Positions 2,619 through 21,886 of a stretch of 32,121 nucleotides of DNA are shown here, piece by piece. The stretch is from an uncultured Bacteroidales bacterium (GTDB taxonomy: Bacteria > Bacteroidota > Bacteroidia > Bacteroidales > UBA12077): assembly GCA_964633615.1 (NCBI GenBank), contig CAZWHH010000001.1:1-32121 (forward strand), written 5' to 3'. How positions within the stretch are numbered: the first letter of the stretch is position 1; each line of letters opens with the position of its first letter. The position numbers were made by a program, and so were the translations under genes. The notes below the pieces were generated by a model. It was not told the origin of the DNA and did no database searches. It saw only the letters and a list, made by a program, of their open reading frames with translations.

Positions 2619-4103
2619 TTACTTCATCAAAGCATTGAATTCATTGATTACTTTATCGATTTCAGGAACCATCTTATGAATTTCCGCCCAGTAATCCCGG
2701 TAATTATACCATTGATCATTCAAGTCTTTCAACTCACGTCCCTGTTGTTCAATCCATGTATAATACTTCAGGTTATGAACCCGCTTCCTTTCGTAGTGAG
2801 TTAATTCCAGCGTATGATCAATGCCCAGGTTCATTAGATGATCGTAATCTTTTGCAGCTTCTTCACGCTTATAAGAACCATGTGCCTCGTGCATCTCCTC
2901 CATACGGGAATCATATAATTCCATAGAATCCGTAAAAACAGTCAACACCACATCTTCCTTAGTAAGCTCGTAGTATTTTGCGTATTTTATTGCCGACAGC
3001 ACATTTCCTATGGAAGAAATGCCCATTAAATCAAGCTGATCAATCAGTTTTTGATCAATACCTTGTTCAGCCAGGTATTCTCTGCCCTTTTCCTCGTTAA
3101 ATAAACGGGTTGTGCGCATAGTTGATTCATCGTCGACAGCTACTACCATATCCGTATTTCTGACGTTGTGGATCCAGGGTACGTGCTTGTCGCCAATACC
3201 TTCAATACGATGTCCGCCAAATCCATTTTGCAGTAAAGTTGGGCATTGCAATGCCTCTCCCACGGCAATTTTTGAACCCGGATATTGTTCTTTCAGGAAA
3301 TCTCCCGAGCCAAGTGTTCCGGCAGAACCTGAGGTTAGCACCACCCCTGAATAGTTATCCCGTGCTCCCATCTCTTTTTCCAGCACTTCCTTCATTGCAT
3401 TACCGGTGACATCATAATGCCATAAATGATTGCCAAACTCATCAAACTGGTTAAATATCATCACGTCATCACGCGTTTTTCGTAACTCCCAGCATTTGTC
3501 AAAAATTTCTTTTACGTTACTCTCACAACCGGGTGTGGCAATTACTTCACCTGCCACTTTTTTCAGCCAGTCGAAACGCTCTTTTGACATTCCTTCCGGA
3601 AGAATAGCGATTGATTCGCAGGCAAGCAAGGCTGCATCGTAAGCTCCTCCGCGACAATAATTGCCGGTGGAAGGCCAAACTGCTTTATGTTGCTTAGGGT
3701 TAAACTGCCCGGTGATCAAACGGGGAGCGAGACATCCAAAAGTAGCCCCAACTTTGTGGGCCCCGGTGGGGAACCACTTCCCCACAAGAGCTATAATTCG
3801 CGCATCCACTCCTGTAATTTCAGGTGGAAGCTCAATGTAATTTACTCCCGAATAGCCTCCTCCACTTTGGACAGGCTCATTTTTCCATGTTATTCTGAAT
3901 AAATTACGTGGATGAATATCCCACAGACCAATTCCTTCCAACTCTTTTTTGATACCATCAGGAATAAGTGAAGGATTTTTCATCTGCTCAAATGTGGGGA
4001 TAATAATATCACGTTCCTTACAAATTTCCGCATTATTCTTCTGTTGTGCTTTATCTACTTTTAAATCAATCATATCTTTCTTTGTTTTAATATATGTTAT
4101 CAA
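2619..4103 (-). CDS. fold-type II PLP-dependent enzyme (TrpB/CysK superfamily, long form; possibly OrtB-like lyase/thiolase)
   Basis: 494-aa ORF with FPTGAHKVGATFG (candidate PLP-lysine motif), a glycine-rich loop LTSGSAGTLGSG, and a roughly 130-aa helical C-terminal extension. The ORF-track start at 4103 is TTG and overlaps the upstream stop (TTGA). The first ATG is at 4073. Confidence 0.65.
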   Translation of the reverse strand: MITYIKTKKDMIDLKVDKAQQKNNAEICKERDIIIPTFEQMKNPSLIPDGIKKELEGIGLWDIHPRNLFRITWKNEPVQSGGGYSGVNYIELPPEITGVDARIIALVGKWFPTGAHKVGATFGCLAPRLITGQFNPKQHKAVWPSTGNYCRGGAYDAALLACESIAILPEGMSKERFDWLKKVAGEVIATPGCESNVKEIFDKCWELRKTRDDVMIFNQFDEFGNHLWHYDVTGNAMKEVLEKEMGARDNYSGVVLTSGSAGTLGSGDFLKEQYPGSKIAVGEALQCPTLLQNGFGGHRIEGIGDKHVPWIHNVRNTDMVVAVDDESTMRTTRLFNEEKGREYLAEQGIDQKLIDQLDLMGISSIGNVLSAIKYAKYYELTKEDVVLTVFTDSMELYDSRMEEMHEAHGSYKREEAAKDYDHLMNLGIDHTLELTHYERKRVHNLKYYTWIEQQGRELKDLNDQWYNYRDYWAEIHKMVPEIDKVINEFNALMK

Positions 4104-4930
4104 CCTCTTTTAGGGTTCTTATTCTTTTTATCTTTTAAATGAATTGCCTCTTTTTGATAGCGTATTGTCTGTATCTCAGCGGCAATAGACAATGCAATTT
4201 CCCATGGATTATCGGTACCGCCAATATCCAAACCCACGGGACAGTATACGTTCGACAGATCAGGATTTTCTTCCACTTCTTCATTCAGGCTTTCGATCAA
4301 TTCTGCACGCGTATTTGTTGAAGCGACAATGCCTATATAAGGAGTCTGAATGTTCAACTTAAAAATCTTATTCAAAATGGTGCTGTCGTGTTTATGTTGA
4401 TAGGTAGCAAGCAAGAAATAAGGATGCTTTCTAAAATGGGTTTCATCCAAATAACGGTCAAAATTGGCATGAATCTTTTCCCCTTCCTGTGCGAGCGCAT
4501 TAATCATCTCCTGGCGGTCATCAATTATTGTTACGCTTAAATCCAGTTTACCAAGCAACTCAAAGAGCGCTTTGCCGATATGTCCGGCGCCGAAGATGTA
4601 AACCTTTTTCTGTTGTATAAGTGCCTCAAAAAACAAAGTTGCCTTTCCGCCGCAAGCCATACCGGTACTTCTCCCCTCTCCTTTTTCCTTCGACAAATTA
4701 AATTGTTCAAGTGCATTTTCCCCGGATTGCATCACCTCTTTGGCTTTTCTCTCAGCAAGATATTCGAGATTACCTCCTCCTACGGTTCCTTTAGATGATC
4801 CATCCTCATAGACAAGCATTTTATTCCCTGCCAAAGCAGGACCTTCTCCCTCTTTTTTCACAACAGTTATCAGAACCCCATCCTGTCCGCTGCGCCGCAA
4901 TTCCCATACTTCTTTATAAATATCTTCCAT
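4100..4930 (-). CDS. XdhC/CoxI-family molybdenum hydroxylase maturation chaperone
   Basis: 276 aa. The N-terminal block VLITVVKKEGEGPALAGNKMLV...GTVGGGNLE and the Rossmann-like VYIFGAGHIGKALFELLGKLDLSVTIIDDR are typical of the XdhC_CoxI plus XdhC_C architecture. The gene lies within a Mo-hydroxylase operon. Confidence 0.8.
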   Translation of the reverse strand: MEDIYKEVWELRRSGQDGVLITVVKKEGEGPALAGNKMLVYEDGSSKGTVGGGNLEYLAERKAKEVMQSGENALEQFNLSKEKGEGRSTGMACGGKATLFFEALIQQKKVYIFGAGHIGKALFELLGKLDLSVTIIDDRQEMINALAQEGEKIHANFDRYLDETHFRKHPYFLLATYQHKHDSTILNKIFKLNIQTPYIGIVASTNTRAELIESLNEEVEENPDLSNVYCPVGLDIGGTDNPWEIALSIAAEIQTIRYQKEAIHLKDKKNKNPKRG

Positions 4931-4934
4931 ATTT

Positions 4935-5705
4935 CTATCTTGTCATATTATTCAAATAATTCTCTCTTTTCAGTACTTCTGAATTCGTTTTATCATCAGC
5001 CAGCCAGGTAACAAACTCTTTGCCTTTGAGATGTTTTACGGGAACAGCTTCCATTATATGCCGTTTTAAAAGCTCATAATCCTTTACAAGCGTTCCGCAA
5101 ACCGCATCAATTCCATACTCAAACAGAGCAGGAGATAGCGGAGTGGAAGGCCCCATCACAATCTTATAAGCATCATTGCGTACATATTGCATAATTTCCC
5201 AAAATGTATGATTTATCAGGGATGTTCCTGTTATCACAGCTACATCAGCTTCCGGCATATAATTTTTGATATCATTCTCTTTAAGATCCCCATCCGACGG
5301 GGACTTTTCAAAAATAAACAGTTCCCCTACTCCTTCCATATTTTCCAGAAAAGGGAAATGGCCAACCACACCCACGGTTTTATCTTTTCCCTTTTCATAG
5401 ATAAGATTTTGAGCCTTAAGCTTTTTATAAGGACGATCATAAACAGACATCCACGCATTAATCGCCGCCATGCCAATGGAGGCCTTCAAAGTATACTCCG
5501 AATAAATAAATTCCGCCAGTTCACGCAAAGACAGGTTCCTGAAATTTCCTGCTCCTGTAATATATTCGTGCGGATTGTTTCCTTTCAAAGTACTTGCAAT
5601 ACCTTCCGCTTCGCCTGCTTTCACTAATGTGGAAAAAGCGCCTACAACGACTTCATCGACAGCAATTTCCGGTATATTTTCTGTAAATTTATCTAAAATG
5701 TGCAT
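4935..5705 (-). CDS. DUF364/DUF4213-like protein (Rossmann-like, putative metal-chelation domain family)
   Basis: The ORF-track start at 5726 is TTG. The ATG at 5705 gives MHILDKF...VDEVVVGAFSTLV, a typical N-terminus for this family. VGVVGHFPF and AVITGTSLINHT motifs are present. The gene is 4 nt upstream of the XdhC-type gene. Confidence 0.6.
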   Translation of the reverse strand: MHILDKFTENIPEIAVDEVVVGAFSTLVKAGEAEGIASTLKGNNPHEYITGAGNFRNLSLRELAEFIYSEYTLKASIGMAAINAWMSVYDRPYKKLKAQNLIYEKGKDKTVGVVGHFPFLENMEGVGELFIFEKSPSDGDLKENDIKNYMPEADVAVITGTSLINHTFWEIMQYVRNDAYKIVMGPSTPLSPALFEYGIDAVCGTLVKDYELLKRHIMEAVPVKHLKGKEFVTWLADDKTNSEVLKRENYLNNMTR

Positions 5706-5793
5706 AAATAAAATACTATAAATCAATTCTTTTAATTTTTTTCCTCTTTTACGACCGGTAAATAAGTTTCTTAAATCTACTTGTTTATTATTC

Positions 5794-6657
5794 CTATTCT
5801 AATTGTTTGTTCTTTAAAATTTTATCTTCAATGAAAGCCTGTATCAAATCCAGGCTTACTGCCTTCCTGTATTCTTTCGAAGAGCGGGCATCGTCAATTG
5901 GCTGAATGTACTTTTCGTAACCCTTACGGATTTCCGGAAATGCCTCTTTAATCTCCTTACCATCCAAATCTTTCAGTCGGTTTTCTATATCTTTCTGCCG
6001 GACGATTTTGGGAGCTACAGCGCCTAATGCTATGCGAATGTCACTAAGTTTGCCCTCACTAAATGAAGCCAAGCCAGCAAAAGAAATCTTGGATAAAGCC
6101 ATCGCTTTGCGAGTTCCGACTTTCCTGTAATATTCGACATCAAAATTTTCCACAGGAATGCGGACTTCAACCAGCAACTCATCAGATTTCCTACAAGTCT
6201 GCCCGGGCCCGGTTATAAAATCCTCAATTGGCATTTCTCTTACATTTTCAGCACTCTGCAATACAATTGACGCATTGACTGCATATAAAAACGGAAGTGT
6301 ATCAGCGGCGGGTGATGCATTGCTAATGTTACCGCCAATCGTTGCGACATTGCGGGTGGTTACAGCTGCCATCTGCCGGGCTGTCTCACTGAGCACATTG
6401 GGAATTCTATTCTCTTTAATTAAATCCCTCAGCAAAACACCAGAGCCGATTATAAGCTGCCCTGAATTGATCTCAAGACGTTTCAACCGGTCAATTTTAT
6501 CTAGAAAAAGCAAAGGCTCTTCAAATCGTGGCGAAATTCCACCTTCTCTCCTGTGCTGTACCATTAAATCGGTTCCTCCGGCTATGGGAATAACCTTATT
6601 GGCTGTCATAATCTCCAATGCTTCTTCCAATGTTTGTGGAATAAAACCTTCGCTCAT
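5794..6657 (-). CDS. molybdenum hydroxylase FAD-binding subunit (CoxM/XdhB-type), set 1
   Basis: 287 aa with IPIAGGTDLMV and ATIGGNISNASPAADT motifs of the FAD_binding_5 / CO-dehydrogenase flavoprotein family. Its ATG overlaps the stop of the 2Fe-2S gene (ATGA at 6654-6657). Confidence 0.85.
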   Translation of the reverse strand: MSEGFIPQTLEEALEIMTANKVIPIAGGTDLMVQHRREGGISPRFEEPLLFLDKIDRLKRLEINSGQLIIGSGVLLRDLIKENRIPNVLSETARQMAAVTTRNVATIGGNISNASPAADTLPFLYAVNASIVLQSAENVREMPIEDFITGPGQTCRKSDELLVEVRIPVENFDVEYYRKVGTRKAMALSKISFAGLASFSEGKLSDIRIALGAVAPKIVRQKDIENRLKDLDGKEIKEAFPEIRKGYEKYIQPIDDARSSKEYRKAVSLDLIQAFIEDKILKNKQLE

Positions 6658-7121
6658 TTTTCCTCCCGCTTTTGAACCGCCGTATTGATTCCTTCAATTA
6701 TCATGTTATAACCTGTACAACGACAAAGATTACCTGAAATAGCATTCCTGATATCTTCCATGGTCGGGTTTGTCTTTTCTCGTAACAAAGCTTCTGCAGA
6801 AATAACCATACCCGGAGTACAAAAGCCACATTGCACAGCACCGGATTTTTTAAAAGCTTCCTGTATGATTTTAAAATTTTCTGTTTCACGAATTCCTTCT
6901 AATGTTTCTACAGAATGTCCGTCCACATTACCTGCAGGCAAAATGCAAGATGTAACCACCTTTCCGTCAACTAAAACAGCGCAAGCACCACATTCTCCTT
7001 CACCACACCCTTCTTTTAAACTTCTCAGGCCAAACTCATCTCTCAAAACATCTAATAATCGATGTTCCGGTGGCACATCCACTTTTACAGCCTTGTTATT
7101 TAATGTAAATTCAATCCTCAT
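6654..7121 (-). CDS. molybdenum hydroxylase [2Fe-2S] subunit, set 1
   Basis: 155 aa with CGEGECGACAVLVDGKVVTSC (plant-type 2Fe-2S) and QCGFCTPGMV...CRCTGY (second 2Fe-2S). It overlaps both neighbouring genes. Confidence 0.9.
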   Translation of the reverse strand: MRIEFTLNNKAVKVDVPPEHRLLDVLRDEFGLRSLKEGCGEGECGACAVLVDGKVVTSCILPAGNVDGHSVETLEGIRETENFKIIQEAFKKSGAVQCGFCTPGMVISAEALLREKTNPTMEDIRNAISGNLCRCTGYNMIIEGINTAVQKREEK

Positions 7122-9204
7122 TTTTTCTGGCTTTTAAATATTCAGGTGTCATAGATATCCGACCGATTCTTATTCCGAGCGCTTGCTCTGCAGCTTCTGC
7201 CAGAGCAGGTGCCACACCGCTTAAAGGCAATTCTCCGGCACATTTAGCTCCGAAAGGTCCGAATTCGTATGGATTCTCTACAAAATCACATTCAATTTCG
7301 GGTACATCAACAGAAGTGGGAATAGTATAATCCGTAAGATTAAGCTGATCAAGTTTGCCCTTCCCGTGAGTCAATTTTTCAAGATAGGCATACCCAAGCC
7401 CCTGTATCATACCGCCATGTATCTGCCCCTTTATAATATCTTCGTCCAAGGCAACTCCAATATCGTATACAGCCCATAGTTTTTCCACTTTGAGCTCACA
7501 TGTAACCGGATCAACTTCCACTTCTGCCACATTAGCTCCCCATGAATAAACAGGATAAGCATCGCCCTGAAATTTGTCATTATCCCAGCTCACATAATCA
7601 GGATGTTTATATACCTCTTTCACTTCTGTTTTTTCCTCGGTCCATTTTTCCAACAATCTATTGCAGGCTTTTTTGACAAGCCCCCCGATAATCATAGCTG
7701 TTCGTGAAGCGGCAGTAGGGCCTGAGTCAGGAACCTTATCCGTATCCTGTGTAACAAATTCTACATCAGCCTCAGGTATAGAAAGGCTGTAAGCCACAAT
7801 TTTTATAAGGGTAGTTGATGCTCCCTGGCCCATTTCAACATTAGAAGTTAAAATACTTACTTTATTCCCTTTCTTCCTCAAATAGACTTCTGCGCTTATA
7901 TTCACTTCGCCTTTCCCTGTAAAACCACAACCATGAAGGAAAAAGGAAATACCTACCCCTTTATTTTTCCCTGGATTAAGTTTCTTCTTTTCATATCCGG
8001 ACATTGTATTAATTTTATCAAGGACTTCCCGAATTTTAACATCCGACCACATCTTTCCTCCTGTAGAAGTAGCATCTCCTTTTTTCAGAAAATAGCGCTT
8101 TTTAAATTTCAGTGAGGAGTACCCGGTTTCAGAAGCCATACGGTTCATAAGCTGTTCGATTCCAAAAAGAACCTGTGGAGATCCGAACCCCCGAAAAGCG
8201 CCGGAAGGAACTGTATTAGTCTTTACAACTCTTCCTCTCACTTGCAGATTTGGAAAAGCATAAACTCCTGTAGCCGTAAAAATGCCCCGTTGGAGCACTA
8301 CAGGGGAAATCGTAGCATAAGCTCCACCATCAAACGAAACATCGATGTCGAGGGCAGTAATTTCATCTTTTTCATTTAAAGCTACACGGTATTTCAGTAT
8401 GGATGGATGTCGCTTAGTTGTGGCTTCAATATCTTCCTTTCTGTCAAGAATAAGCCTGACGGTTTTATTGGTTTTCAACGCAGCCGTAGCTGCCTGTGCA
8501 GCCAACAGGGAAGGATACTCCTCTTTTCCGCCAAATGCCCCACCGGTAACTGTTTGAATGATTTGAATTTTGTCTTTAGGAAATCCTGTAGCTTCAATTA
8601 TTGCATTTTTAACGAAATAGGGACATTGAACAGACCCATAAATGATAATTCTTCCATTGTGATATTGAGCAATCACCCCATTGGTTTCCAGATAAAGATG
8701 TTCCGGACGGCCTGTGCGAAATTCGTCGGTGATAATCTTTGACGCATTAGCAAAAGCTTCATCAGGATCTCCTTTCGAATAATCATACTCCACATGGTGC
8801 TCCTTTTTTTCTTCTGCTTCTTCAATGCTTGTAATTGGCGATAATTCCCGGTAATCAATTTCTACCTGTGAAGCCAGCTCGGCTGTTTTTTCTTTGGAAG
8901 GACCAGTAATAAGCAATATAGGCTGACCAATGTAATGCACTTCATCTTCAGCAAAAACAGGATGATCGCATACCACTGTCTGCATCCTGTTGTTTCCCTG
9001 AATATCATTTTTATCGATTACTTCGTAAGCCGCTGGTAGTACAGGCAGATGTATGGCTTCTATTTTTGCATGAGCCTTGCTGCTACGGACGGTTCTGGCA
9101 TGCACATAGTTTCCCGGGTTCATATCTGCTATATATTCCGCCCTCCCTGAAATCTTTTGTTCCGCATCCAACCTTGGTATGGAAGCACTTATTGATTTAT
9201 CCAT
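7111..9204 (-). CDS. molybdopterin-binding large subunit of a xanthine dehydrogenase-family hydroxylase, set 1
   Basis: 697 aa with GGAFGGKEE, GAFRGFGSPQ and the C-terminal FGAKCAGELPL (catalytic Glu motif). These are the signatures I associate with bona fide xanthine dehydrogenases. Confidence 0.85.
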   Translation of the reverse strand: MDKSISASIPRLDAEQKISGRAEYIADMNPGNYVHARTVRSSKAHAKIEAIHLPVLPAAYEVIDKNDIQGNNRMQTVVCDHPVFAEDEVHYIGQPILLITGPSKEKTAELASQVEIDYRELSPITSIEEAEEKKEHHVEYDYSKGDPDEAFANASKIITDEFRTGRPEHLYLETNGVIAQYHNGRIIIYGSVQCPYFVKNAIIEATGFPKDKIQIIQTVTGGAFGGKEEYPSLLAAQAATAALKTNKTVRLILDRKEDIEATTKRHPSILKYRVALNEKDEITALDIDVSFDGGAYATISPVVLQRGIFTATGVYAFPNLQVRGRVVKTNTVPSGAFRGFGSPQVLFGIEQLMNRMASETGYSSLKFKKRYFLKKGDATSTGGKMWSDVKIREVLDKINTMSGYEKKKLNPGKNKGVGISFFLHGCGFTGKGEVNISAEVYLRKKGNKVSILTSNVEMGQGASTTLIKIVAYSLSIPEADVEFVTQDTDKVPDSGPTAASRTAMIIGGLVKKACNRLLEKWTEEKTEVKEVYKHPDYVSWDNDKFQGDAYPVYSWGANVAEVEVDPVTCELKVEKLWAVYDIGVALDEDIIKGQIHGGMIQGLGYAYLEKLTHGKGKLDQLNLTDYTIPTSVDVPEIECDFVENPYEFGPFGAKCAGELPLSGVAPALAEAAEQALGIRIGRISMTPEYLKARKNED

Positions 9205-9209
9205 CTTTA

Positions 9210-9779
9210 TTATTTTTCAAAAAATCTCTTCTTAATATACTCATAATCTTCATCTGTGTCAATATCCAGCAAAATCCCTTCGTCCTCAACTTCAACAACA
9301 TTGGCTTTGCGGCTATGAATAAAATCCCTGAGAATACCATCTTCAGGCATTTCAATAATTCCCTCACGGCAGTCATTGCGAAACAATACCGGATGTCCTT
9401 TCTTCCCTTTAAAAGAAGGATTAACAATGTTGCCCTCAGTTTTCATAAGCTTTGTCAGCGTTTGCCTTTTAATCATTGGCTGGTCGCCGGGGAGAACAAA
9501 AAACGTATCAGATTTCAATTCCTTTACCCCACATTGCACAGAAGAGAACATCCCCTTGCGGAAATCCGGATTTTCAACTATCCTGACACCCTTGTGACTC
9601 TGCAGGACCTGTTCACATTCTCTTGCTTTATGTCCTGCAACAACAATCACGTTATCGCACACCTCCAATAAAGTATCAACCGTATGTTCTATGACGGTCT
9701 TTTCTCCAAGTGGTAAAGTCATTTTATAGCGACTTGTCCGTGAAGACAAACCCGCTGCAAGAACTATGGCTTCAATCAT
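9210..9779 (-). CDS. mocA: molybdenum cofactor cytidylyltransferase (MocA/YgfJ family)
   Basis: 189 aa with N-terminal IVLAAGLSSRTSRYKMTLPLG, typical of the NTP_transf_3 family (MobA/MocA). Its start overlaps the upstream stop by 8 nt, and it lies 5 nt upstream of the Mo subunit gene. Confidence 0.75.
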   Translation of the reverse strand: MIEAIVLAAGLSSRTSRYKMTLPLGEKTVIEHTVDTLLEVCDNVIVVAGHKARECEQVLQSHKGVRIVENPDFRKGMFSSVQCGVKELKSDTFFVLPGDQPMIKRQTLTKLMKTEGNIVNPSFKGKKGHPVLFRNDCREGIIEMPEDGILRDFIHSRKANVVEVEDEGILLDIDTDEDYEYIKKRFFEK

Positions 9780-10953
9780 CGATATCCTCCAGTTTTTCTA
9801 TAGATTTATTTGGTATTTCCACAACTTTGCCGGCAGAATCAATATCCTTCATTCCACTACCAGTAGCCATAAGAACAGTAGTTGCATCTTCAGGCATTTG
9901 GTTCTTAATTTTAAGAAAACCCGCCATCGAAGCTGCAGAAGAAGGTTCAACAAATAAACCTGTTGTGGCTGAGAGCTCCCGCTGTGCTTCCAGGATTTCC
10001 TGATCGGACACCCTGACGCAACTACCACCTAAAGCTTTCAATTCACGCAAAGCATAATAACCATTAGCCGGTACATCCACACTAATGGAGTCGGCAAGCG
10101 TATTTGCCTTAACCGGTTTCCCGAAATCTCCGTTTTCCATAGCCCGGGTCAAAGCATCGCTATTTTCAGCCTGCACAGCAATAACTTCGGGGAAGTTCTT
10201 AATCCAACCCAGCTTTTTTAAATCCTTAAATCCTTTCAAAACACCACTAAGCACCACGGCATCGCCGGTTGGGACAAAAATATAGTCCGGTACTTTTTTT
10301 AACTGATGATACAATTCAAAAGCTGCCGTCTTTTTCCCTTCAATAGTCAGAGGATTAAAACCGGTATTGCGGTTTAGTGATTTGCCTGAACCCTTATATT
10401 GCATCGAGAGCTGGAAAGCATTATCATAGCTGCCTTTCACCAAAACCACTTTAGCTCCGTATTGCAATGACTGGATAAGTTTGGCTTTGGGAACATTTTC
10501 GGGTACAAATATCATAATTTTTAATCCGGCGGCGGCTCCAATACCAGCCATCGATGAAGCTGCATTTCCTGTGGAAGCAACAGTAATATTTGTAATACCC
10601 CACTTTCTGGCAAAAGCAGCTACCAACCAGGATGCCCGGTCTTTATAGGAACCGGTTGGATTCACCGTGTCATCCTTAATAAATAGATTAGGCGCATTCA
10701 ATTTTTTTCGTAAAATTTGGGGCAACCAAAGTGGTGTATTGCCTACCGGCAATTCCGGAAAATAATTTTTATCAACAGGTAAAACCTCATAAATGGAGCT
10801 GTCTTCAGGCAAAGAACCTTTCATATCTACTTCAAGAATACCCCGCAATGGACGCTTCTCTTCCTGTTTTTCCTGACAAACAGGACACAGCATAACATCC
10901 GGTTCAATCGGATATTCCTTTCCACATTCGCTGCATTTATAAACAAACTCCAT
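9772..10953 (-). CDS. threonine synthase-like fold-type II PLP enzyme with N-terminal zinc ribbon
   Basis: 393 aa with CSECG...CPVC at the N-terminus, VNPTGSYKDRAS (the ThrC PLP-lysine motif) and VASTGNAASS. No other threonine-biosynthesis genes are nearby. Confidence 0.75.
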   Translation of the reverse strand: MEFVYKCSECGKEYPIEPDVMLCPVCQEKQEEKRPLRGILEVDMKGSLPEDSSIYEVLPVDKNYFPELPVGNTPLWLPQILRKKLNAPNLFIKDDTVNPTGSYKDRASWLVAAFARKWGITNITVASTGNAASSMAGIGAAAGLKIMIFVPENVPKAKLIQSLQYGAKVVLVKGSYDNAFQLSMQYKGSGKSLNRNTGFNPLTIEGKKTAAFELYHQLKKVPDYIFVPTGDAVVLSGVLKGFKDLKKLGWIKNFPEVIAVQAENSDALTRAMENGDFGKPVKANTLADSISVDVPANGYYALRELKALGGSCVRVSDQEILEAQRELSATTGLFVEPSSAASMAGFLKIKNQMPEDATTVLMATGSGMKDIDSAGKVVEIPNKSIEKLEDIDD

Positions 10954-10968
10954 AATATTAAATTTTTC

Positions 10969-11961
10969 TTATCCCATTAATTCTTTTAAAAGTCCTCTTG
11001 CCGTATGCAATCTGTTCTCGGCTTCATCATAAATAATCGAGTTTGGGGAGTCGAGCACCTCATCTGTAACTTCTTTACCTCTGTCTGCAGGAAGGGCATG
11101 CATAATTTTTGCATCCTTATTCGCCATAGAATAAAGCGTTTCATCTAAAATCCAGTCCGGATGTTTTTCCAGATTCTCTTTCATTATAGCTTTATTCTCA
11201 TCGGTATCCTCCCATTTATCAAAATAACCAAATCCACCCCAGTTTTTCGGGATCACAATATCGGCACCTTTCACGGCTTCCTCCTTGTTATGTGTGAATG
11301 TAAGATTTGTTCCGTTTTCTGCTGCATTTTTCTTTGCCTGTTCAACAATATCATCCTGCAGAGGAAATTCTTCGGGCATTCCAACGGTAACATCCATTCC
11401 GAAGCGCGGGAAGAAGAGCACCTGCGACTGAGGGACTGAAAGTGGCTTGGCATGTGAGGTGGCATAAGCCCACAAAATGGTCACTTTTAACTTTTCAGAT
11501 TTTGGAAAATGCTCCTTAATTGTAAGGTAATCGGCGATAACCTGCAAGGGATGGTAGATGTCATCCTGCATAGAAATCATTGGCACATCAGCATACTTTG
11601 CTATGTCTTTGAGATATTGGTTACCCAACTCATGAAAACAATTACGAATAGCAATCCCTTCACCCATTCGGCCAAGTACGTTACCCGTATCTTTGACTGT
11701 TTCCCCGTGGGAAATCTGCATTTTTCCTTTGGTCAGATCGTGAGCGTGACCACCAAGCTGAGTCATGGCAGCTTCCATAGAATTACGGGTACGGGTGGAT
11801 TGCTCAAAAAATATCATAAACAAGGTTCTTTGCTTCAGGTAATCGAAGACTTCACCGTTTTTATAACGCTTCTTTAAATCAAGGGTAGTTTCCAGTAAAT
11901 AATTAATCTCTTCTTTCGTCCAGTCCTGAAATGTTATGAGATCTTTTCCTTTTAAATTCAT
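10969..11961 (-). CDS. ygeW: YgeW-like carbamoyltransferase (ATCase/OTCase superfamily)
   Basis: 330 aa with STRTR, HPLQ and HALPADRG motifs. WAYATSHAKPLSVPQ...RFGMDVT and IPKNW resemble my recollection of E. coli YgeW (WAYSPSYGKPLSVPQ, PKSW). The ornithine-binding SMG motif is absent. Confidence 0.75.
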   Translation of the reverse strand: MNLKGKDLITFQDWTKEEINYLLETTLDLKKRYKNGEVFDYLKQRTLFMIFFEQSTRTRNSMEAAMTQLGGHAHDLTKGKMQISHGETVKDTGNVLGRMGEGIAIRNCFHELGNQYLKDIAKYADVPMISMQDDIYHPLQVIADYLTIKEHFPKSEKLKVTILWAYATSHAKPLSVPQSQVLFFPRFGMDVTVGMPEEFPLQDDIVEQAKKNAAENGTNLTFTHNKEEAVKGADIVIPKNWGGFGYFDKWEDTDENKAIMKENLEKHPDWILDETLYSMANKDAKIMHALPADRGKEVTDEVLDSPNSIIYDEAENRLHTARGLLKELMG

Positions 11962-12013: not shown

Positions 12014-13195
12014 TTAGCCTTCCAAAGTATAGGGCAACAGTGCATAAAAAGCAGCTGCTTTGTCGAGATGTTCTATGGGTGTTTTTTCATTCGGGGCATG
12101 TGCCATCACCTCATTGCCCGGACCAAAACCCAAACACGGTATCTTATAACGGCCGCAAACAGCCACAGCATTTGTTGAGAATGTCCACTTATCCACTACC
12201 GGATTTTTTTCGAAAAGTTCTTTAAAATTGGTAACCCCGGATTGTATCAATGGATGATCCGCTTCAACTTTCCACGTAGGGAAATACTGTTCCTGCTTAA
12301 AAACAGTACCTTTATAGCTGGGTTTATCATAAAGCGGCACTTCGACTTCAGCATCATCACCCAGCAAATCGGAAACTTCTTTGACAGCCGATTCTTTTGT
12401 TTCACCCCAGGTCAGGCGCCTGTCAATATGGATATTGGCTTTATCGGGTATTGCGCAAAGTGAAGGAGCATCACTCTTGAATACAGTGGGAGCCAGTGTT
12501 CCTTTACCCAGCAATTCATCGGTTTTAAGCTTCTCATTTAACTCTTCAAGCTGAACAGCGAAGCGTGAAGCGCTGTAAATGGTGTTTTTGCCTCTACCAG
12601 GTGCCGAAGCATGTGCAGAAAGCCCTTTAAAATAAACTTCCATTTCCATGCGCCCGCGGTGTCCACGGTATATATTAAGATTCGTAGGCTCAGTAATCAC
12701 GCAGTAATCCGGTTTAAGATTTTCCTTTTCAATCAGGTAAAGCCAGCACAAACCATCGGCATCCTCTTCCATAATCGTAAAGGTAAAATATATTGTCCAG
12801 TCGCCATCGTAATTCATTTCCTGAAGGATACGAGCTGCAGTAATCATAGAAGCAGCGCCTCCCTCCTGGTCTACTGTACCCCGGCCGTGAACGTAACCAT
12901 CTTTAATTTCCCCGGAAAACGGATCAAAGTCCCATTGGGAAACATCACCAGTATCAACGGTATCAATATGTGCATCGACAGCCAGTATTTTTTTACCCGA
13001 CCCGATTTTGGCAATGACGTTTCCCAAACCATCCGTCCAGTGATTCTTTATTCCGGCTTTATCCAGAAGCTCACTTACTTTTTCCATTACTTCCTTTTCT
13101 TCTCCACTCATGGAAGGGATTTTTACCATTTCGGACAAGCATTCACTTGTAAACGAGGAGTATTGTTTCGTCTTCTTCAGTATTTCTTCCTTCAT
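12014..13195 (-). CDS. ygeY: YgeY-like M20-family amidohydrolase/peptidase
   Basis: 393 aa with blocks EEDADGLCW, YRGHRGRMEMEV, IDRRLTWGET, YFPTWKVE, VVDKWTFSTN and GFGPGNEVMAHAPNEK. These align with remembered E. coli YgeY over the full length. Confidence 0.85.
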   Translation of the reverse strand: MKEEILKKTKQYSSFTSECLSEMVKIPSMSGEEKEVMEKVSELLDKAGIKNHWTDGLGNVIAKIGSGKKILAVDAHIDTVDTGDVSQWDFDPFSGEIKDGYVHGRGTVDQEGGAASMITAARILQEMNYDGDWTIYFTFTIMEEDADGLCWLYLIEKENLKPDYCVITEPTNLNIYRGHRGRMEMEVYFKGLSAHASAPGRGKNTIYSASRFAVQLEELNEKLKTDELLGKGTLAPTVFKSDAPSLCAIPDKANIHIDRRLTWGETKESAVKEVSDLLGDDAEVEVPLYDKPSYKGTVFKQEQYFPTWKVEADHPLIQSGVTNFKELFEKNPVVDKWTFSTNAVAVCGRYKIPCLGFGPGNEVMAHAPNEKTPIEHLDKAAAFYALLPYTLEG

Positions 13196-13226: not shown

Positions 13227-16200
13227 TTATATACTTTTGCTAAGGGCTTTAGCAGCTTCATAAATCACACTCATTCTAATGGCCTCATCAAATTTAATTT
13301 CCCTGACCTTATTAAGTGTGACTTTCTCCGGGTGAAAGTCCTTCACCCGCAATTCTGCCTGAGCTTCCTCTGATTCAAAAAAGAAGGAATTTTCTTTCCT
13401 TTGCAGCGACTTCATCTTGCCTTCCTTTTTCAAAAAAAGTTTCTCATCCTCAAAGAAGTAACCCTCTTCAGCCTCGGAAAAGCTCTTTTCTGTCAGGTGA
13501 AGCTGTGGTTTATCCTTAAAAGGTGCACCTGAAGAGGGACAGAATGTTTCACAATTCCCGCATTCGTTACAGAAATCCTTTATATTGAGCACCTGGTAAC
13601 GCTGCTTTAAACTAAAAATACCATTCGTTCCTTTTGTAACTCGCCCATTTTCTGCACGAGCAAAGGGAATCTCAACTGAAAAGGGCTTTATCTCGTAAGA
13701 ATGATTTGCCCGGTTGGGGCACACATCCACGCAGATATTGCAGAGTTCATCGCAAAACATGCAACGACCGGCCTCTTGTTCGATTTCGTCTTCTGGAAGC
13801 GGTTGATTGACCAGTTCAAAATCAGTTCGTTCTTCCGGTGGAAGTTTCTTTATGTGTTTACCTCGCTCCGTCCGGGCTTTGTTGAATTGCAATTCAGAAA
13901 GTGTGACATCCTTGTCAACATGAACCCGACTGGTATCTTCAGGCTTCACTCCTGATCTTTCCATGATATTCCAGGCAGTATATTTACCATCTGCGATGGC
14001 TTTTATCAAGGTAGAAGCCCCTCTTTTGGCATCTCCACCAATGAAAACATTTTCAGAGGATGCAGTTAAAACTCCTTGTTTATCAATCAATTCCCTAAAT
14101 TCTGGTTCTACGTCCTGACCAAAAGCGGGAATAATTGTGTCACAATCAAAAGTAATCTGTTTATCGCCATCAGGGACCGGTTTGGACCGGCCACTATCAT
14201 CTTTCCCTTCAATTTTCATTTTCTGAAACTTCATGCCCGTTATCTGTCCCTGTTCTGTCAATACCTCCAAAGGATTGGCAAGTTCGATCCATTCTATTCC
14301 CTCTTCCAAAGCTTCTTCCAATTCCTCCTCATCAGCAGGCATTTCAGCCCTGGTTCGGCGGTAGGCAAGTATAACAGTTCCTGTGGTTCCGACCAGCCTT
14401 TTTACAGCACGGACCGCATCAAGGGCTACATTACCGCCTCCAAGGACAATAATATTTTTTCCTATGTTTGTTTTCCTACTAAACTTAATATCCGAAAGCA
14501 ATTCAAGAGGTGAGACCAAACCCTCTGAAACTTTCTCAGCTCCAGCGGTTTTCAGGCTCTTGCCCGTTTGAGCTCCCACTGCAATATAAATAAAGTCAGA
14601 TTTTTCCTTAAGTTCCTTAAATTTATCTCTGGTAATTTTTATTCCATAATGAATGGTTACTCCCATCCGCTTAATACGCTGAACATCCTTTGCAAGAGCT
14701 TCATCAGACAGCCGGAAAGAAGGGATTGTTTGGGCCACCATGCCACCCGCTTGCTCTTTAGACTCAAACATCTCTACATTAAAACCGGCAAGGGCTAAAT
14801 AATAAGCACAGCTAAGGCCGGATGGCCCGGCACCAATTATAGCTACTTTTCCCTTAGTACTATCTAAAGTGCTTACATATTGGGAAGGATCACTGTTTTC
14901 TGCAATAAATCGTTTTATTTCCCTGATAAGAAGTGGATCATCGTACAAAACCCTTGTACATCTTGTCTGACATTCATGATCACAGATCATGCCGGAAACG
15001 GAAGGAAAAGGATTGTCATGCATAATCACTTCAAAAGCTTTATCATATTCTCTCCGACCCGCATAATAAAGATATCCTGGCACATTTTGCCCTGAGGGGC
15101 AGGTACTCTCACATGGCGCCTGAATGCAATCAAAATGATTTAAAGGCCTCTCCAAATGAATACTGGGTGATTGGGCGTTATAATCAGGATTTTCAAGAAC
15201 AAAATCTGCATAGCGGTTGAGATTTTTTCGGGTCGCCTCGTGAAGATCTTCCTCACCAGCTTTCTGTTTACTATATTCTTCAAGATTATTGGCTCCAAAG
15301 GCAAAACATTCCTGTTGCAAAATTTCTACATACTGACTAAGCTTTCCATAACCGCCGGGTCGTAAAAGATCTGTACTAACAGTAACAGGATTCAATCCAC
15401 AGGAAATGGTATCGGCAATATTAAAAGTATCAACACCGCCTGAAAATGAAACAGGAACTTCTTTCAATGCCTCTTCATTTTTCAGCCTTCTGGAAACATT
15501 AATGCTTATTGGATGCAGCGCTTTGCCACTCATAAACATAGCATCTCCCTCAAAAATATTTTTGTGGTTAAGGGATTCCAGCGTATTTGTGAGTTTCAGT
15601 CCGAAATTAAGATTTTCATTTTCTGCAGTTTCCATCAGGGACTTGATCACTTTAACGGCTTCATCATAATCAATATCGTGTTCAAAAGCTTCATCAGGAA
15701 CAACTGTAGGATAGCCATACTGATCTAAAATTTGACGAATTTTTTCCGGTCCCAGCAAGGTAGGATTGAATTTTATAAAGGTATGCAACCCTTTTTCCTG
15801 AAGCAGAAACTCACCAATCTGCCGGATTTCACCGGGAGGACAGCCGTGCATTGTGGAAAGTGTCACATTATCGGAGATACAATCGGGAATATCAATTTCC
15901 TTAGCTCGCGGATAGATGTCTTCAATAGCCTCAAGCTTTTCATTTTTTTCTTTGCTGCAGTCATTCATTTTATTCAAGAACCACTGCACATTGTCCTTTT
16001 TAATTCCTTCCAGATCGTATCCAAGACTCATATTGAAGATAGTTCCTATATCTTCGCTCCACCGGAATTTATCTTTCAGAATATGAATAAGAATCCACGC
16101 ATTTAGGTATTCATCATAAGATTGGTGGATTTTCAATTCCTGCGAAAACTCGCAGTTATATCCTTCAAACGGCATATCAATACATGGACGGGGAATATCC

Positions 16201-16475
16201 AGTTCGTCATCGGTCTGAACAGTTTTCAATTCAATATAGCGGGCCCCGCACAGCCATGCACTAACAATATTTTGTGCCATTTGAGAGTGAGGGCCGGCCG
16301 AAATGCCCACCGGATTTTCCAGTGGCTGATCAAACATCCGGGTTCTCAAGGGGTTATTCTTTTCCGGCTTGTAAAAAAATTTTCCCGGTATATCAAATAC
16401 TTTATTCTTCCCGACGCCTTTCATGGTAAGCTCAAAAAGATGGCGCCATGAGATTAATGAAAATTCACTATTCAT
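13227..16475 (-). CDS. ygfK: YgfK-like multidomain Fe-S flavoprotein oxidoreductase (DHOD/DPD-like TIM barrel, GltD-like FAD/NAD(P)H module, 2x[4Fe-4S] ferredoxin)
   Basis: 1082 aa. AGPHSQMAQNIV...YIELKTVQ, LSTMHGCPP and FIKFNPTLLG match remembered E. coli YgfK. Cys clusters are CIQAPCESTCPSG and CDHECQTRCTR. The Rossmann motifs are VAIIGAGPSGLSCAYYLA and IIVLGGGNVALDAV. The C-terminal clusters are CMFCDELCNICVDVCP and CNECGNCETFCP. Confidence 0.9.
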   Translation of the reverse strand: MNSEFSLISWRHLFELTMKGVGKNKVFDIPGKFFYKPEKNNPLRTRMFDQPLENPVGISAGPHSQMAQNIVSAWLCGARYIELKTVQTDDELDIPRPCIDMPFEGYNCEFSQELKIHQSYDEYLNAWILIHILKDKFRWSEDIGTIFNMSLGYDLEGIKKDNVQWFLNKMNDCSKEKNEKLEAIEDIYPRAKEIDIPDCISDNVTLSTMHGCPPGEIRQIGEFLLQEKGLHTFIKFNPTLLGPEKIRQILDQYGYPTVVPDEAFEHDIDYDEAVKVIKSLMETAENENLNFGLKLTNTLESLNHKNIFEGDAMFMSGKALHPISINVSRRLKNEEALKEVPVSFSGGVDTFNIADTISCGLNPVTVSTDLLRPGGYGKLSQYVEILQQECFAFGANNLEEYSKQKAGEEDLHEATRKNLNRYADFVLENPDYNAQSPSIHLERPLNHFDCIQAPCESTCPSGQNVPGYLYYAGRREYDKAFEVIMHDNPFPSVSGMICDHECQTRCTRVLYDDPLLIREIKRFIAENSDPSQYVSTLDSTKGKVAIIGAGPSGLSCAYYLALAGFNVEMFESKEQAGGMVAQTIPSFRLSDEALAKDVQRIKRMGVTIHYGIKITRDKFKELKEKSDFIYIAVGAQTGKSLKTAGAEKVSEGLVSPLELLSDIKFSRKTNIGKNIIVLGGGNVALDAVRAVKRLVGTTGTVILAYRRTRAEMPADEEELEEALEEGIEWIELANPLEVLTEQGQITGMKFQKMKIEGKDDSGRSKPVPDGDKQITFDCDTIIPAFGQDVEPEFRELIDKQGVLTASSENVFIGGDAKRGASTLIKAIADGKYTAWNIMERSGVKPEDTSRVHVDKDVTLSELQFNKARTERGKHIKKLPPEERTDFELVNQPLPEDEIEQEAGRCMFCDELCNICVDVCPNRANHSYEIKPFSVEIPFARAENGRVTKGTNGIFSLKQRYQVLNIKDFCNECGNCETFCPSSGAPFKDKPQLHLTEKSFSEAEEGYFFEDEKLFLKKEGKMKSLQRKENSFFFESEEAQAELRVKDFHPEKVTLNKVREIKFDEAIRMSVIYEAAKALSKSI

Positions 16476-17751
16476 AAAACCTCCCCTGTAATTTTTTTGC
16501 AGCTTTCTTCAGTTCTTTTTTTATTTCAGCCTCATCCACAGTTTGAATCTTTCCGTCGCGGTAAATTACTTCTCCGCCTGAAATAGTCATGTAGGTTTTC
16601 TGTGCTCCAAAGCCGAGTATAAGATGAAAAAACAGATTGTCTAAATTTATAGGTGTTTCAGGCACATAATCCAACACCGCCAAATCAGCAGTACGTCCAA
16701 CCTGAAGTCCTCCACTTTGCGGAAAAACGGAATTGATCACTTCTTCTGAACGCCGGAATAATTTATCTGCCGGATTTTCAACTGCCCCATTCCTTCTAAG
16801 AAAATGAGACCGGTAGCTGCCGATAATATTCCCGGACATTCCATCCGTTCCTATGACGTAATCCCTGATCTTTTCGGTATCCATCATTCCCACGTTATTA
16901 TTAGCATTCGACTCCGGATTGGAAACCACCACCGGATTATATTCATTAATTAACCGTGCGTCATTTTCAGAAATATGGACACAATGTATCAAAAGAGAAA
17001 AATCTGACAATAAATTAAATTGATTCAACCGGTCTATCGGACCATCAAAACCTTCATCCAGACAAAAATCAAAATCCTCCTTTCCTTCACCGCAATGAAT
17101 GTGTATTGGCATCTTATCCGGTTTATTATGGCTGATCGTTTGTAGCGAATCACTGCTTAATGTGAAATTGGCATGTAATCCCATCATTCCTTTTGTTTTA
17201 GGGGAATCAATGTGTTCATTGTAAAATTTAAGATTTTCATCCAACTGTTTCCGAAATACATCTTCACCCTCCCTGTCAGATATTTCAAAGGACAGTGCGC
17301 TTTTTAAGCCCACTTCATTAAAAGCTTTTTCAATTAAATCGAGACTTCCTTTCACATAGTTGGAAGAAACATGATGGTCAAAAATAGTAGTAACTCCGTA
17401 TTTCGCGGAATCGATAACACCGGAGAGAGCAGAATAGTAAACTGTCTCTTCATCCAAAACCCGGTCAAGTGGCCACCAAAGGTTTTTAAGAATATTGGAA
17501 AGTTTATCGGTCGGGCCGAGGGGAACAATTCCAACAGCAAAACGTGAATAAAGATGATGGTGTGGGTTCAATAATCCCGGAATAATAATCCTGCCGCCAG
17601 CATCAATGTATTCTCCATCCGTTTTTTCCATTTCATGCGCACTTCCTATAGCGGCAATTTTGTCATTCTCAATGCGGACGAACCCATTCTCATAGAACAC
17701 TGAATGTCCGTCTGTTACTACTGCATTTCCTATTGTATAATTTGTTGACAT
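16468..17751 (-). CDS. ssnA: SsnA-like aminohydrolase (amidohydrolase superfamily)
   Basis: 427 aa. LKNLWWPLDRVLDEETVYYSAL...IFDHHVS...GSLDLIEKAF closely parallels remembered E. coli SsnA (LKNLWWRLDRALDEESLYYSGL...VIDHHAS). A PHHHLYS metal motif is present. The stop overlaps the ygfK start by 8 nt. Confidence 0.85.
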   Translation of the reverse strand: MSTNYTIGNAVVTDGHSVFYENGFVRIENDKIAAIGSAHEMEKTDGEYIDAGGRIIIPGLLNPHHHLYSRFAVGIVPLGPTDKLSNILKNLWWPLDRVLDEETVYYSALSGVIDSAKYGVTTIFDHHVSSNYVKGSLDLIEKAFNEVGLKSALSFEISDREGEDVFRKQLDENLKFYNEHIDSPKTKGMMGLHANFTLSSDSLQTISHNKPDKMPIHIHCGEGKEDFDFCLDEGFDGPIDRLNQFNLLSDFSLLIHCVHISENDARLINEYNPVVVSNPESNANNNVGMMDTEKIRDYVIGTDGMSGNIIGSYRSHFLRRNGAVENPADKLFRRSEEVINSVFPQSGGLQVGRTADLAVLDYVPETPINLDNLFFHLILGFGAQKTYMTISGGEVIYRDGKIQTVDEAEIKKELKKAAKKLQGRFYE

Positions 17752-21883: not shown

Positions 21884-21886
21884 TGG

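Follow-up and report, generated by a model that had tools for sequence, protein, structure and literature searches.

Why does a gene that resembles threonine synthase (ThrC) lie in a purine-degradation cluster at the position where ygeX would be expected? The question is raised by a 32,121-nt stretch of DNA from an uncultured Bacteroidales bacterium (contig CAZWHH010000001.1, referred to as the window in the rest of the text), and it bears on how bacteria of the gut and the environment degrade urate anaerobically, a process in which interest stems from hyperuricaemia and gout and which was worked out only in 2023-2025. The published pathway terminates with YgeX acting on diaminopropionate (10.1101/2025.05.19.654654; 10.1101/2025.04.24.650524). 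Neither of these two preprints mentions a ThrC-like enzyme, and our searches of the searchable literature found no description of one in the urate pathway, nothing relevant linking 'threonine synthase' with ssnA or DAP ammonia-lyase, and nothing usable on zinc-ribbon ThrC-like enzymes. From the analyses described below, it appears that a ThrC-like subfamily was taken on to serve as the last PLP enzyme in the anaerobic reductive urate pathway.

The open reading frame called in the sequence-only reading at positions 9772-10953 is real: it lies on the minus strand, starts with an ATG and codes for a protein of 393 aa. Based on profile and residue comparisons and on an AlphaFold model, we classify its product as a ThrC-family paralogue and propose it as a candidate diaminopropionate-deaminating PLP lyase. 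Both motifs that had been pointed out in the protein are present. The PLP-lysine motif NPTGSYKDRAS occupies residues 98-108 and contains the Schiff-base lysine K104, which aligns with K61 of the Thermus thermophilus ThrC, while the N-terminal CxxC...CxxC ribbon (YKCSECG...LCPVCQ) provides C7, C10, C23 and C26, all four of which are conserved in 171-173 of 175 relatives. Since this Cys4 ribbon also occurs in relatives bearing the true ThrC motif, its role is probably structural. The PALP domain (PF00291) was detected with a score of 249 bits. The AlphaFold model has a pLDDT of 93.2, and the top 21 matches returned for it by Foldseek were all ThrCs (TM 0.65-0.83, normalised to target length), with no YgeX structure among the top 50. 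Serine racemases also appeared among the structural matches. Long members of the family were examined for a fused partner domain; the two that turned up, one of the inositol-monophosphatase and one of the LeuA-dimer type, were uninformative.

The end of the ThrC-like gene (TGA stop codon at 9774-9772) overlaps the start of mocA (ATG at 9779-9777) by 8 nt, exactly as had been claimed; the overlap is ATGATTGA, within the sequence ...GATATCGATGATTGAAGCC. The product of mocA (9210-9779, minus strand) is a MocA/YgfJ-like molybdenum cofactor cytidylyltransferase, an assignment supported by PF12804 and by a TIGR03310 score of 165 bits, slightly below the 186-bit cut-off. On the other side, upstream of the ThrC-like gene and separated from it by 15 nt, a gene of the OTC/PTC/YgeW superfamily (10969-11961, minus strand) codes for a 330-aa protein of the Asp/Orn carbamoyltransferase family, presumed to carry out the phosphorolysis of a ureido group. 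The placement of the ThrC-like gene between a YgeW-like gene and mocA is thus correct as to position, but 'YgeW-like' is only loosely right, as the OTC (263 bits) and putrescine carbamoyltransferase (254 bits) models score higher than YgeW (179-186 bits).

Further upstream, also on the minus strand, lie genes coding for a YgeY-family M20 hydrolase for ureido-group cleavage (12014-13195; NF009555, 489 bits for a cut-off of 321), a YgfK flavin/Fe-S reductase (13227-16475; TIGR03315, 865 bits for a cut-off of 835), an SsnA-like amidohydrolase for ring opening (16468-17751; NF005540, 383 bits, under the cut-off of 444), a cyclic amidohydrolase of the allantoinase/hydantoinase type for the HyuA-equivalent step (17763-19115; TIGR03178, 370 bits for a cut-off of 358), and a first Mo-hydroxylase set (19108-22696) composed of an XdhA-like Mo subunit (19108-21423), a 2Fe-2S subunit (21407-21883) and a FAD subunit (21887-22696). 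Beyond mocA, the same strand carries a second Mo-hydroxylase set (5794-9204) with its FAD (5794-6657), 2Fe-2S (6654-7121) and Mo (7111-9204) subunits, followed by accessory genes repeatedly seen alongside the cluster (2619-5726), which code for a 494-aa CysK/CBS-like PLP protein (2619-4103), XdhC (4100-4930) and a DUF4213/DUF364 protein (4935-5726). An 8-oxoguanine deaminase-type amidohydrolase, which is recurrent at the cluster edge, is encoded at 1003-2421 (minus strand; NF006055, 594 bits for a cut-off of 532). The published list of pathway genes comprises a Mo hydroxylase, a YgfK-type (or UacX-type) reductase, SsnA, a cyclic amidohydrolase, YgeY and a carbamoyltransferase or acylase, with YgfK being responsible for the dearomatisation of 2,8-dioxopurine (10.1101/2025.05.19.654654). 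Between positions 5794 and 22696, the window holds this reductive urate (2,8-dioxopurine) gene set complete and on one strand, from the Mo hydroxylase to YgeY, with a YgfK-type reductase and a carbamoyltransferase.

A search of the window's genome, an 80%-complete MAG, yielded no carbamate kinase (YqeA, TIGR00746), the enzyme that would harvest carbamoyl phosphate; a carbamate kinase gene adjoins family members in other genomes. In agreement with the remark that no thrA or thrB is nearby, scanning of all open reading frames of at least 100 aa outside the cluster revealed no thrA, thrB or hom in the window. A search of the same 80%-complete MAG with the YgeX model (TIGR03528, E ≤ 0.001) detected no YgeX-family gene, and the ThrC-like gene itself gave no match; YgeX belongs to a different family. 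The gene order is not due to chance, as it is seen again in many phyla, where the proteins are 40-93% identical.

The best solved relatives of the ThrC-like protein are ThrCs (E = 1e-45 to 1e-49). With the short bacterial ThrCs (EC 4.2.3.1; Aquifex aeolicus 2ZSJ, T. thermophilus 1UIM, Bacillus subtilis 6CGQ and Mycobacterium tuberculosis 2D1F) it shares the fold-type-II PLP fold, 31-35% identity over approximately 325 residues, and the conserved PLP-lysine block xGS(F/Y)KDR, ASTGN and EGxKT; ThrCs are also the best structural matches of its model (TM 0.79-0.83), and the zinc ribbon is found in some ThrCs with the true motif. The residues specific to the family are A131, T203, K207, D231, D288 and S289. 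Whereas the five solved ThrCs all carry G64, T88, R160, Q164 and N188, the equivalents in 171-175 of the 175 family sequences are A107, A131, T203, K207 and D231, respectively (G64A, T88A, R160T, Q164K and N188D), and D288 and S289 of the family stand in place of ThrC T/S239 and A240. Alignment of the loop around residues 195-200 is ambiguous, as ThrC N154/S155 could match N196/T197. We take T88, R160 and N188 (T. thermophilus numbering) to be the phosphate ligands for O-phosphohomoserine in ThrC; a literature search on these ligands returned nothing usable. Because the residues common to the solved ThrCs at these three positions are replaced, the comparison supports the view that the ThrC-like protein is not a true ThrC.

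Phylogenetic placement against genuine ThrC, as the earlier reading had proposed, assigned the protein to a clade separate from the characterised ThrCs. In this FastTree analysis, the family forms a supported clade of 99 rows (SH-like 96) whose sister group holds the solved ThrCs, the zinc-ribbon ThrCs with the true motif, and same-genus paralogues. The profile scores are divided: the protein passes the thrC model TIGR00260 (184.8 bits, cut-off 167.1), compared to 284-314 bits for the housekeeping thrC of congeners, but remains far under the cut-offs of every other thrC equivalog model (NF006050, NF004170, NF006205, NF005035 and NF004996). Within the ThrC family, the protein falls into a large, well-separated and uncharacterised subfamily, and the 'threonine synthase' label given across that subfamily is probably a systematic misannotation.

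Unlike thrC, the ThrC-like gene is never linked to thrB; its linkage is with ygeY and with genes for carbamoyltransferase and XDH. Among 80 ygeY-anchored loci from many phyla, a ThrC-like gene lies within 10 kb in 54 and ygeX in 4, with both in none. It is directly downstream of ygeY in 33 of these 54 loci, many of which have no mocA alongside, and the order OTC/YgeY - ThrC-like - MocA/XDH is kept in Marinimicrobia, Acidobacteriota and WOR-3. The gene also occurs together with true YgeW-type transferases, and two deeper subclades adjoin carbamate kinase, OTC-family genes, an M20 gene or XDH genes. At the genome level, 11 of 12 genomes bearing a ThrC-like gene in a urate cluster lack YgeX, none of 4 genomes with a YgeX cluster has a ThrC-like paralogue, and two genomes (G033 and G140) carry both ThrC-like and YgeX-like genes. 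In a sample of 53 Bacillota genomes drawn evenly from species carrying YgeY, 34 have the ThrC-like gene only, 10 YgeX only, 1 both and 8 neither (Fisher P = 2e-5 for exclusivity, uncorrected for phylogeny); the 8 genomes with neither enzyme indicate that other solutions exist for this step. The two families also share a slot: locus L047 reads ygeY - YgeX - 488-aa PLP gene, and L028, L040, L074 and L083 read ygeY - ThrC-like - ~488-aa PLP gene. Finally, among 31 relatives of the window's genome, the presence of the family (at least 540 bits) coincides fully with that of YgeY, 7 genomes having both and the other 24 neither. The distribution of the family tracks the urate pathway rather than threonine synthesis.

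That a sole thrC in the genome would speak for ordinary ThrC function had been allowed for in the sequence-only reading. The gene is indeed the only thrC-like match above the cut-off in the 80%-complete MAG; congeners, however, keep a separate thrC (13 of 15, 284-314 bits), which adjoins thrB in those checked. As the MAG also lacks thrB, the absence of a thrB-thrC operon seems to reflect a gap in the assembly or an auxotrophy and is no sign of ThrC function, and we rejected this argument for a true ThrC. A separate high-scoring thrC is likewise present in 10 of 12 cluster-bearing genomes elsewhere. Of the 7 genomes in the window's order that bear the family, 5 have no recognisable housekeeping thrC; 4 of these 5 (G000, G003, G016 and G029) have no thrB either, so that the canonical kinase would not supply them with O-phosphohomoserine. 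No other thrC was found in G016 (99% complete), G027 or G029; thrB is present in G027, a pattern that could also fit dual use.

The claim that a ThrC-like enzyme was recruited in YgeX's place is supported by the residues, the clade, the ygeY linkage, the near-exclusivity and the shared slot. We consider it probable that YgeX underwent non-orthologous replacement and that the ThrC-like protein would act as a 2,3-diaminopropionate-deaminating lyase, a different enzyme for the known pathway step. Both ureido groups of 2,3-diureidopropionate would be stripped by YgeY and the carbamoyltransferase to yield 2,3-diaminopropionate, the alpha-amino group of which would displace K104 from PLP. Deprotonation of the PLP-bound diaminopropionate at C-alpha would then allow the beta-ammonium to depart as NH3. 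Two acidic residues that are invariant in the family, D231 and D288, which stand in place of ThrC Asn188 and Thr239, would hold or protonate it. Once released, the aminoacrylate would hydrolyse to pyruvate and a second NH3. In this scheme the substrate and products are inferred, as are the functions given to D231 and D288. YgeX of E. coli (TIGR03528), which has no zinc ribbon, is also a fold-type-II PLP enzyme found in the same neighbourhood and, in some loci, in the identical slot after ygeY, with a complementary distribution and the same proposed reaction; its activity has been measured, whereas that of the ThrC-like protein is predicted. Methanogen cysteate synthase, a ThrC-derived enzyme, would provide a precedent for a ThrC paralogue with beta-carbon chemistry on a C3 amino acid. 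Cysteate synthase keeps a phosphorylated substrate (O-phosphoserine) and is biosynthetic, whereas the ThrC-like family has the presumed phosphate-ligand residues of ThrC replaced and lies in a catabolic cluster.

An enzyme of the same pathway with another substrate or outcome, eliminating urea or carbamate from 3-ureidoalanine (albizziin) or converting diaminopropionate to serine and NH3 by water addition, is an unlikely reading but one that deserves some weight. Water addition is the last step of ThrC chemistry, and cysteate synthase is a ThrC derivative performing beta-replacement on a C3 substrate; moreover, the carbamoyltransferase of the window is OTC/PTC-like rather than YgeW-like, so that the order of steps may differ, and carbamate kinase was not found in this 80%-complete MAG. 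With YgeY and a carbamoyltransferase both present, however, both ureido groups can be removed and diaminopropionate is expected, as in E. coli, and the ThrC-like gene accompanies true YgeW-type transferases as well; the swap with YgeX in the same slot and the near-exclusive distribution also argue for the same reaction. We regard as improbable that the ThrC-like protein is a mere partner, such as a diaminopropionate racemase, with the 494-aa CysK-like PLP protein as the actual deaminating enzyme. In many loci the two PLP genes stand side by side, the 494-aa gene being present in 34 of the 54 ThrC-like loci, and fold-type-II PLP enzymes include racemases, with serine racemases among the structural matches. 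The hydantoinase and acylase steps of the pathway are D-specific (10.1101/2025.05.19.654654), which would suit a racemase. Against this, the 494-aa gene is missing within 10 kb from 20 of the 54 loci, it groups in the window with the XdhC, DUF364 and NTPase accessory genes, and it adjoins YgeX too in L047, so that it is not YgeX's replacement. For this last reason, we rejected the 494-aa protein as a YgeX substitute as the main reading.

It is very improbable that we are dealing with a true threonine synthase, perhaps one with an additional function, which lies in the purine cluster by accident. Passing the TIGR00260 cut-off as the sole match in the MAG would fit such an enzyme, as would the lack of another thrC in G016, G027 and G029 and the thrB of G027; yet Ala, Thr and Asp replace T88, R160 and N188 family-wide, the protein is under the cut-off of all other thrC equivalog models, its gene never adjoins thrB or hom, co-occurrence with YgeY among relatives is perfect, 13 of 15 congeners carry thrC as a separate gene (beside thrB where checked), and G000, G003, G016 and G029 have no thrB. 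We give just as slight a chance to a role in molybdenum-cofactor or selenium/sulfur maturation rather than catabolism, a notion that arises from the coupling to mocA and the proximity of the hydroxylase genes. The position directly after ygeY in 33 of 54 loci, many without adjacent mocA, the distribution complementary to that of the catabolic YgeX, and the location of the deeper subclades with carbamate kinase and OTC genes all argue against it, in spite of the 8-nt overlap with mocA and of a ThrC-like - MocA - XDH order kept in several phyla.

Replacement of YgeX by a ThrC-like lyase, the reading that we prefer, has consequences for how urate degraders are recognised. One published neighbourhood survey labelled 'YgeX' by means of the general PLP domain PF00291, which is unable to separate YgeX from the ThrC-like proteins, and surveys of this kind could therefore miss the difference; marker sets for urate-degrading organisms should take in the ThrC-like family. 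The published enzyme YgeX may be the minority form, the Bacillota sample having 34 genomes with the ThrC-like gene alone compared to 10 with YgeX alone. That in nature anaerobic urate degradation ends most often with the ThrC-derived family and not with YgeX, and that the family may also differ from YgeX chemically, is a more speculative and rather doubtful proposition; such a difference could lie in a strict stereospecificity together with a conserved 490-aa PLP partner, or in the production of serine via water addition and not of pyruvate. If the family were both commonest and chemically distinct, the published pathway would represent a minority solution only. If the assignment proposed here is true, a large block of 'threonine synthase' annotations would be wrong, thereby distorting predictions of threonine prototrophy, and the family would illustrate clearly how a PLP enzyme that eliminates phosphate can be adapted to an amine as the leaving group.

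The segment spanning 1003-22696 is a single co-directional cluster that contains two Mo-hydroxylase sets, YgfK and YgeY (each above its cut-off), an SsnA-like and an allantoinase/hydantoinase-type amidohydrolase, a carbamoyltransferase, the ThrC-like gene, MocA, XdhC, DUF364, a 494-aa CysK-like PLP protein and an 8-oxoguanine-deaminase-type hydrolase. The gene content agrees with that reported in 2025 for the reductive urate pathway of E. coli, C. difficile and C. sporogenes, in which YgeX carries out the last step, the conversion of 2,3-diaminopropionate to pyruvate and ammonia (10.1101/2025.05.19.654654, 10.1101/2025.04.24.650524). No YgeX-family gene was found in the window's genome, a MAG that is 80% complete and comprises 602 contigs.

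The ThrC-like ORF (9772-10953, minus strand) codes for a 393-aa protein bearing an N-terminal CxxC...CxxC ribbon (C7, C10, C23 and C26) and a PLP lysine, K104, inside the block NPTGSYKDRAS. Its stop codon (9774-9772) falls inside the opening codons of the following gene on the same strand, which codes for a MocA/YgfJ-type cytidylyltransferase (ATG 9779-9777). The junction, ...GATATCG-ATGATTGA-AGCC, bears out the 8-nt overlap described in the sequence-only reading, and none of thrA, thrB or hom occurs in the window, as that reading also held for thrA and thrB. An Asp/Orn-carbamoyltransferase-family gene (10969-11961, minus strand) ends 15 nt upstream; its product resembles ornithine and putrescine carbamoyltransferases (263 and 254 bits, respectively) more than YgeW (179-186 bits). 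At other loci the ThrC-like gene is paired with true YgeW-type transferases and YqeA. Carbamate kinase (TIGR00746) was not found in the window's own 80%-complete MAG.

Several other genes of the cluster also recur elsewhere. The 494-aa CysK/CBS-like protein (2619-4103, minus strand; PALP 47 bits, cysK 93 bits) has long N- and C-terminal extensions, and versions of about 485-500 aa are found in urate clusters of many phyla, whereas the E. coli cluster lacks it. XdhC and DUF4213/DUF364 ('heavy-metal chelation'; 4100-5726, minus strand) and an NTPase_1 protein (22889-23407, plus strand) likewise accompany this cluster in other phyla and may constitute an alternative hydroxylase-maturation set; the corresponding position in E. 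coli is occupied by YqeB and YqeC. A homologue of the 8-oxoguanine-deaminase-type amidohydrolase (1003-2421, minus strand; 594 bits compared to a cut-off of 532) adjoins the gene for the 494-aa protein in many loci from Spirochaetes, suggesting that this step feeds the urate pathway. At the window edge, a split HipA-like pair (30770-32004, plus strand; Couple_hipA domain, then HipA_C kinase domain) is likely a toxin-antitoxin-type module.

The order YgeY-OTC-ThrC-like-MocA-XDH is kept around homologues of 57-79% identity on long contigs, those named at source being from Acidobacteria and WOR-3; a UacX-type reductase stands in for YgfK in the WOR-3 cluster. For a view neutral between the two PLP enzymes, we used YgeY as the anchor and classified the ORFs within 10-kb flanks of 80 ygeY loci from named genomes (Spirochaetota, Ignavibacteriota, Cloacimonadota, Acidobacteriota, Verrucomicrobiota, Bacteroidota, Bacillota, Thermotogota, Myxococcota and others) against the window's and E. 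coli proteins. The ThrC-like gene was present in 54 loci, a YgeX-type gene in 4 and both in none, YgeX-using lineages being under-represented because the loci were those with YgeY most similar to the window's; the remaining 22, many of them short contigs, had neither. In 33 of the 54, ygeY is followed immediately on the same strand by the ThrC-like gene, less than 210 nt away. A SAR324 genome (locus L047) has the order ygeW-ygeY-YgeX-488-aa PLP gene, while one Pseudomonadota and several Spirochaete genomes (L028, L040, L074, L083) have ygeY-ThrC-like-~488-aa PLP gene. Since these orders match with YgeX in place of the ThrC-like gene, two enzymes of unrelated families fill one position between identical neighbours. 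The 494-aa protein is ruled out as the YgeX replacement, as its counterpart directly follows YgeX in L047.

Whole genomes gave a similar picture. Eleven of 12 genomes with a ThrC-like gene in the urate cluster had no YgeX-family match at E ≤ 1e-20, and 10 of the 12 carried a separate thrC (250-324 bits); all four genomes with a YgeX-type cluster lacked the ThrC-like paralogue. The exception among the 12, G033 (the genome of locus L055), and another genome, G140, have the ThrC-like gene beside ygeY plus a YgeX-like gene elsewhere. Among 401 evenly drawn Bacillota genomes, YgeY was above cut-off in 53, of which 34 had the ThrC-like gene only, 10 YgeX only, 1 both and 8 neither (P = 2e-5, Fisher's exact test, uncorrected for shared ancestry); the 34 rest on bimodal family-profile scores (33 genomes at no less than 397 bits, plus two fragments beside ygeY at contig ends). 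Among 31 relatives from the same genus, family and order as the window's genome, the ThrC-like family (at least 540 bits) occurred in exactly the 7 with YgeY and was absent from the other 24.

The fold of the ThrC-like protein places it in the ThrC family. Among solved proteins, it is most similar to the ThrCs of A. aeolicus, T. thermophilus, B. subtilis and M. tuberculosis (E 1e-45 to 1e-49, 31-35% identity), which are also the best structural matches of its AlphaFold model (pLDDT 93.2, pTM 0.92; TM 0.79-0.83, target-length normalised); no YgeX structure was among the top 50. It passed the broad thrC model TIGR00260 (184.8 compared to a cut-off of 167.1) but fell far under the cut-offs of five other thrC equivalog models, which accounts for the name 'threonine synthase' given to its relatives in public records. 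Where each of the five solved ThrCs shows KDRG, ASTGN-T, NP-x-R-x-EGQKT and PVGNAGN, the ThrC-like protein has KDRA, ASTGN-A, NP-L-T-I-EGKKT and PTGDAVV, amounting to G64A, T88A, R160T, Q164K and N188D in T. thermophilus numbering, with the further family-invariant changes T239D and A240S (D288 and S289). In an alignment of 175 family members (the protein itself, 54 sequences from named genomes and 120 homologues from databases), K104 is invariant and A131, T203 and D231 are conserved in 175, 171 and 174, respectively; alignment of the loop spanning residues 195-200 is ambiguous, and ThrC N154/S155 may persist as N196/T197. We take T88, R160 and N188 of T. thermophilus ThrC to be ligands of the O-phosphohomoserine phosphate. 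Judged from these replacements, loss of the phosphate-binding Arg and Thr and gain of two invariant Asp would suit a positively charged leaving group, for instance diaminopropionate's beta-ammonium, and would be ill-fitted to a phosphate ester. The zinc ribbon is not diagnostic of the family, because relatives with the complete true-ThrC motif set (P0240 and P0255) carry it too.

A FastTree phylogeny of 129 sequences, with E. coli YgeX as the root, recovered the KDRA/GDG family as a clade of 99 rows with SH-like support of 96, apart from the group comprising the solved ThrCs, ribbon-bearing true-motif ThrCs and two same-genus ThrC paralogue types. Urate-cluster members span the clade from base (Kosmotogaceae, Halanaerobiaceae) to crown, and both intermediate subclades sampled have related contexts: a 487-aa PLP protein, carbamate kinase, ThrC-like, an OTC-family gene and an M20 hydrolase in one, and XDH, two OTC-family genes, carbamate kinase, ThrC-like and a 486-aa PLP protein in the other. 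The two additional paralogue types of the window's genus (L010 9323-10750, L017 9306-10529, L012 8998-10200 and L013 4234-5427) have TWSFKDRG, ISTGNMG and GP(I/L)R(I/V/A)EGYKL and are not part of any purine cluster. In an exhaustive search at E ≤ 1e-30, the ThrC-like family proved large, with 1043 representatives of 50%-identity clusters, true ThrCs included.

A genuine or dual-role threonine synthase was also considered, the sequence-only reading having asked whether this is the genome's only thrC. It is the sole thrC-family match above cut-off in the 80%-complete MAG, but 13 of 15 same-genus genomes have a different thrC (284-314 bits), directly after the homoserine kinase gene in the congeners examined. 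As thrB was not found in the MAG either, the whole thrB-thrC pair is missing, through an incomplete assembly or through loss. No recognisable housekeeping thrC is present in five of the relatives that bear the family (G000, G003, G016, G027 and G029); only G027 (700 contigs) has thrB, and the four without it include the 99%-complete G016. With no canonical kinase, such genomes would offer a ThrC no O-phosphohomoserine, which argues against a hidden ThrC role; the kinase searched for was canonical thrB, to which ThrB2 and ThrH are alternatives. Absence of the housekeeping thrC is commoner in relatives with the cluster (5/7) than in those without it (6/24), which could be due to threonine auxotrophy, assembly gaps or another cause.

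The most economical reading, and probably the correct one, is that this ThrC-derived PLP enzyme is a non-orthologous replacement of YgeX that deaminates 2,3-diaminopropionate. YgeY and the carbamoyltransferase would be expected to yield 2,3-diaminopropionate, from which the ThrC-like enzyme would strip the amino groups to give pyruvate and ammonia, like YgeX. There is a small chance that, while acting in this pathway, it uses another substrate, for example albizziin, or forms another product, for example serine, and a scheme in which it works with the 494-aa PLP protein seems less likely still. The coupling to mocA would favour a role in cofactor maturation, which we consider very improbable, on a par with threonine synthesis. 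Neither pathway preprint mentions the ThrC-like enzyme, and one of the two scored 'YgeX' neighbourhoods by the generic domain PF00291 (10.1101/2025.05.19.654654, 10.1101/2025.04.24.650524). In the literature searched, no paper ties ssnA or diaminopropionate ammonia-lyase to a threonine-synthase homologue in this sense. The finding would be that of a known pathway step in a new form, through an enzyme family that is widespread and, on this reading, consistently misannotated.
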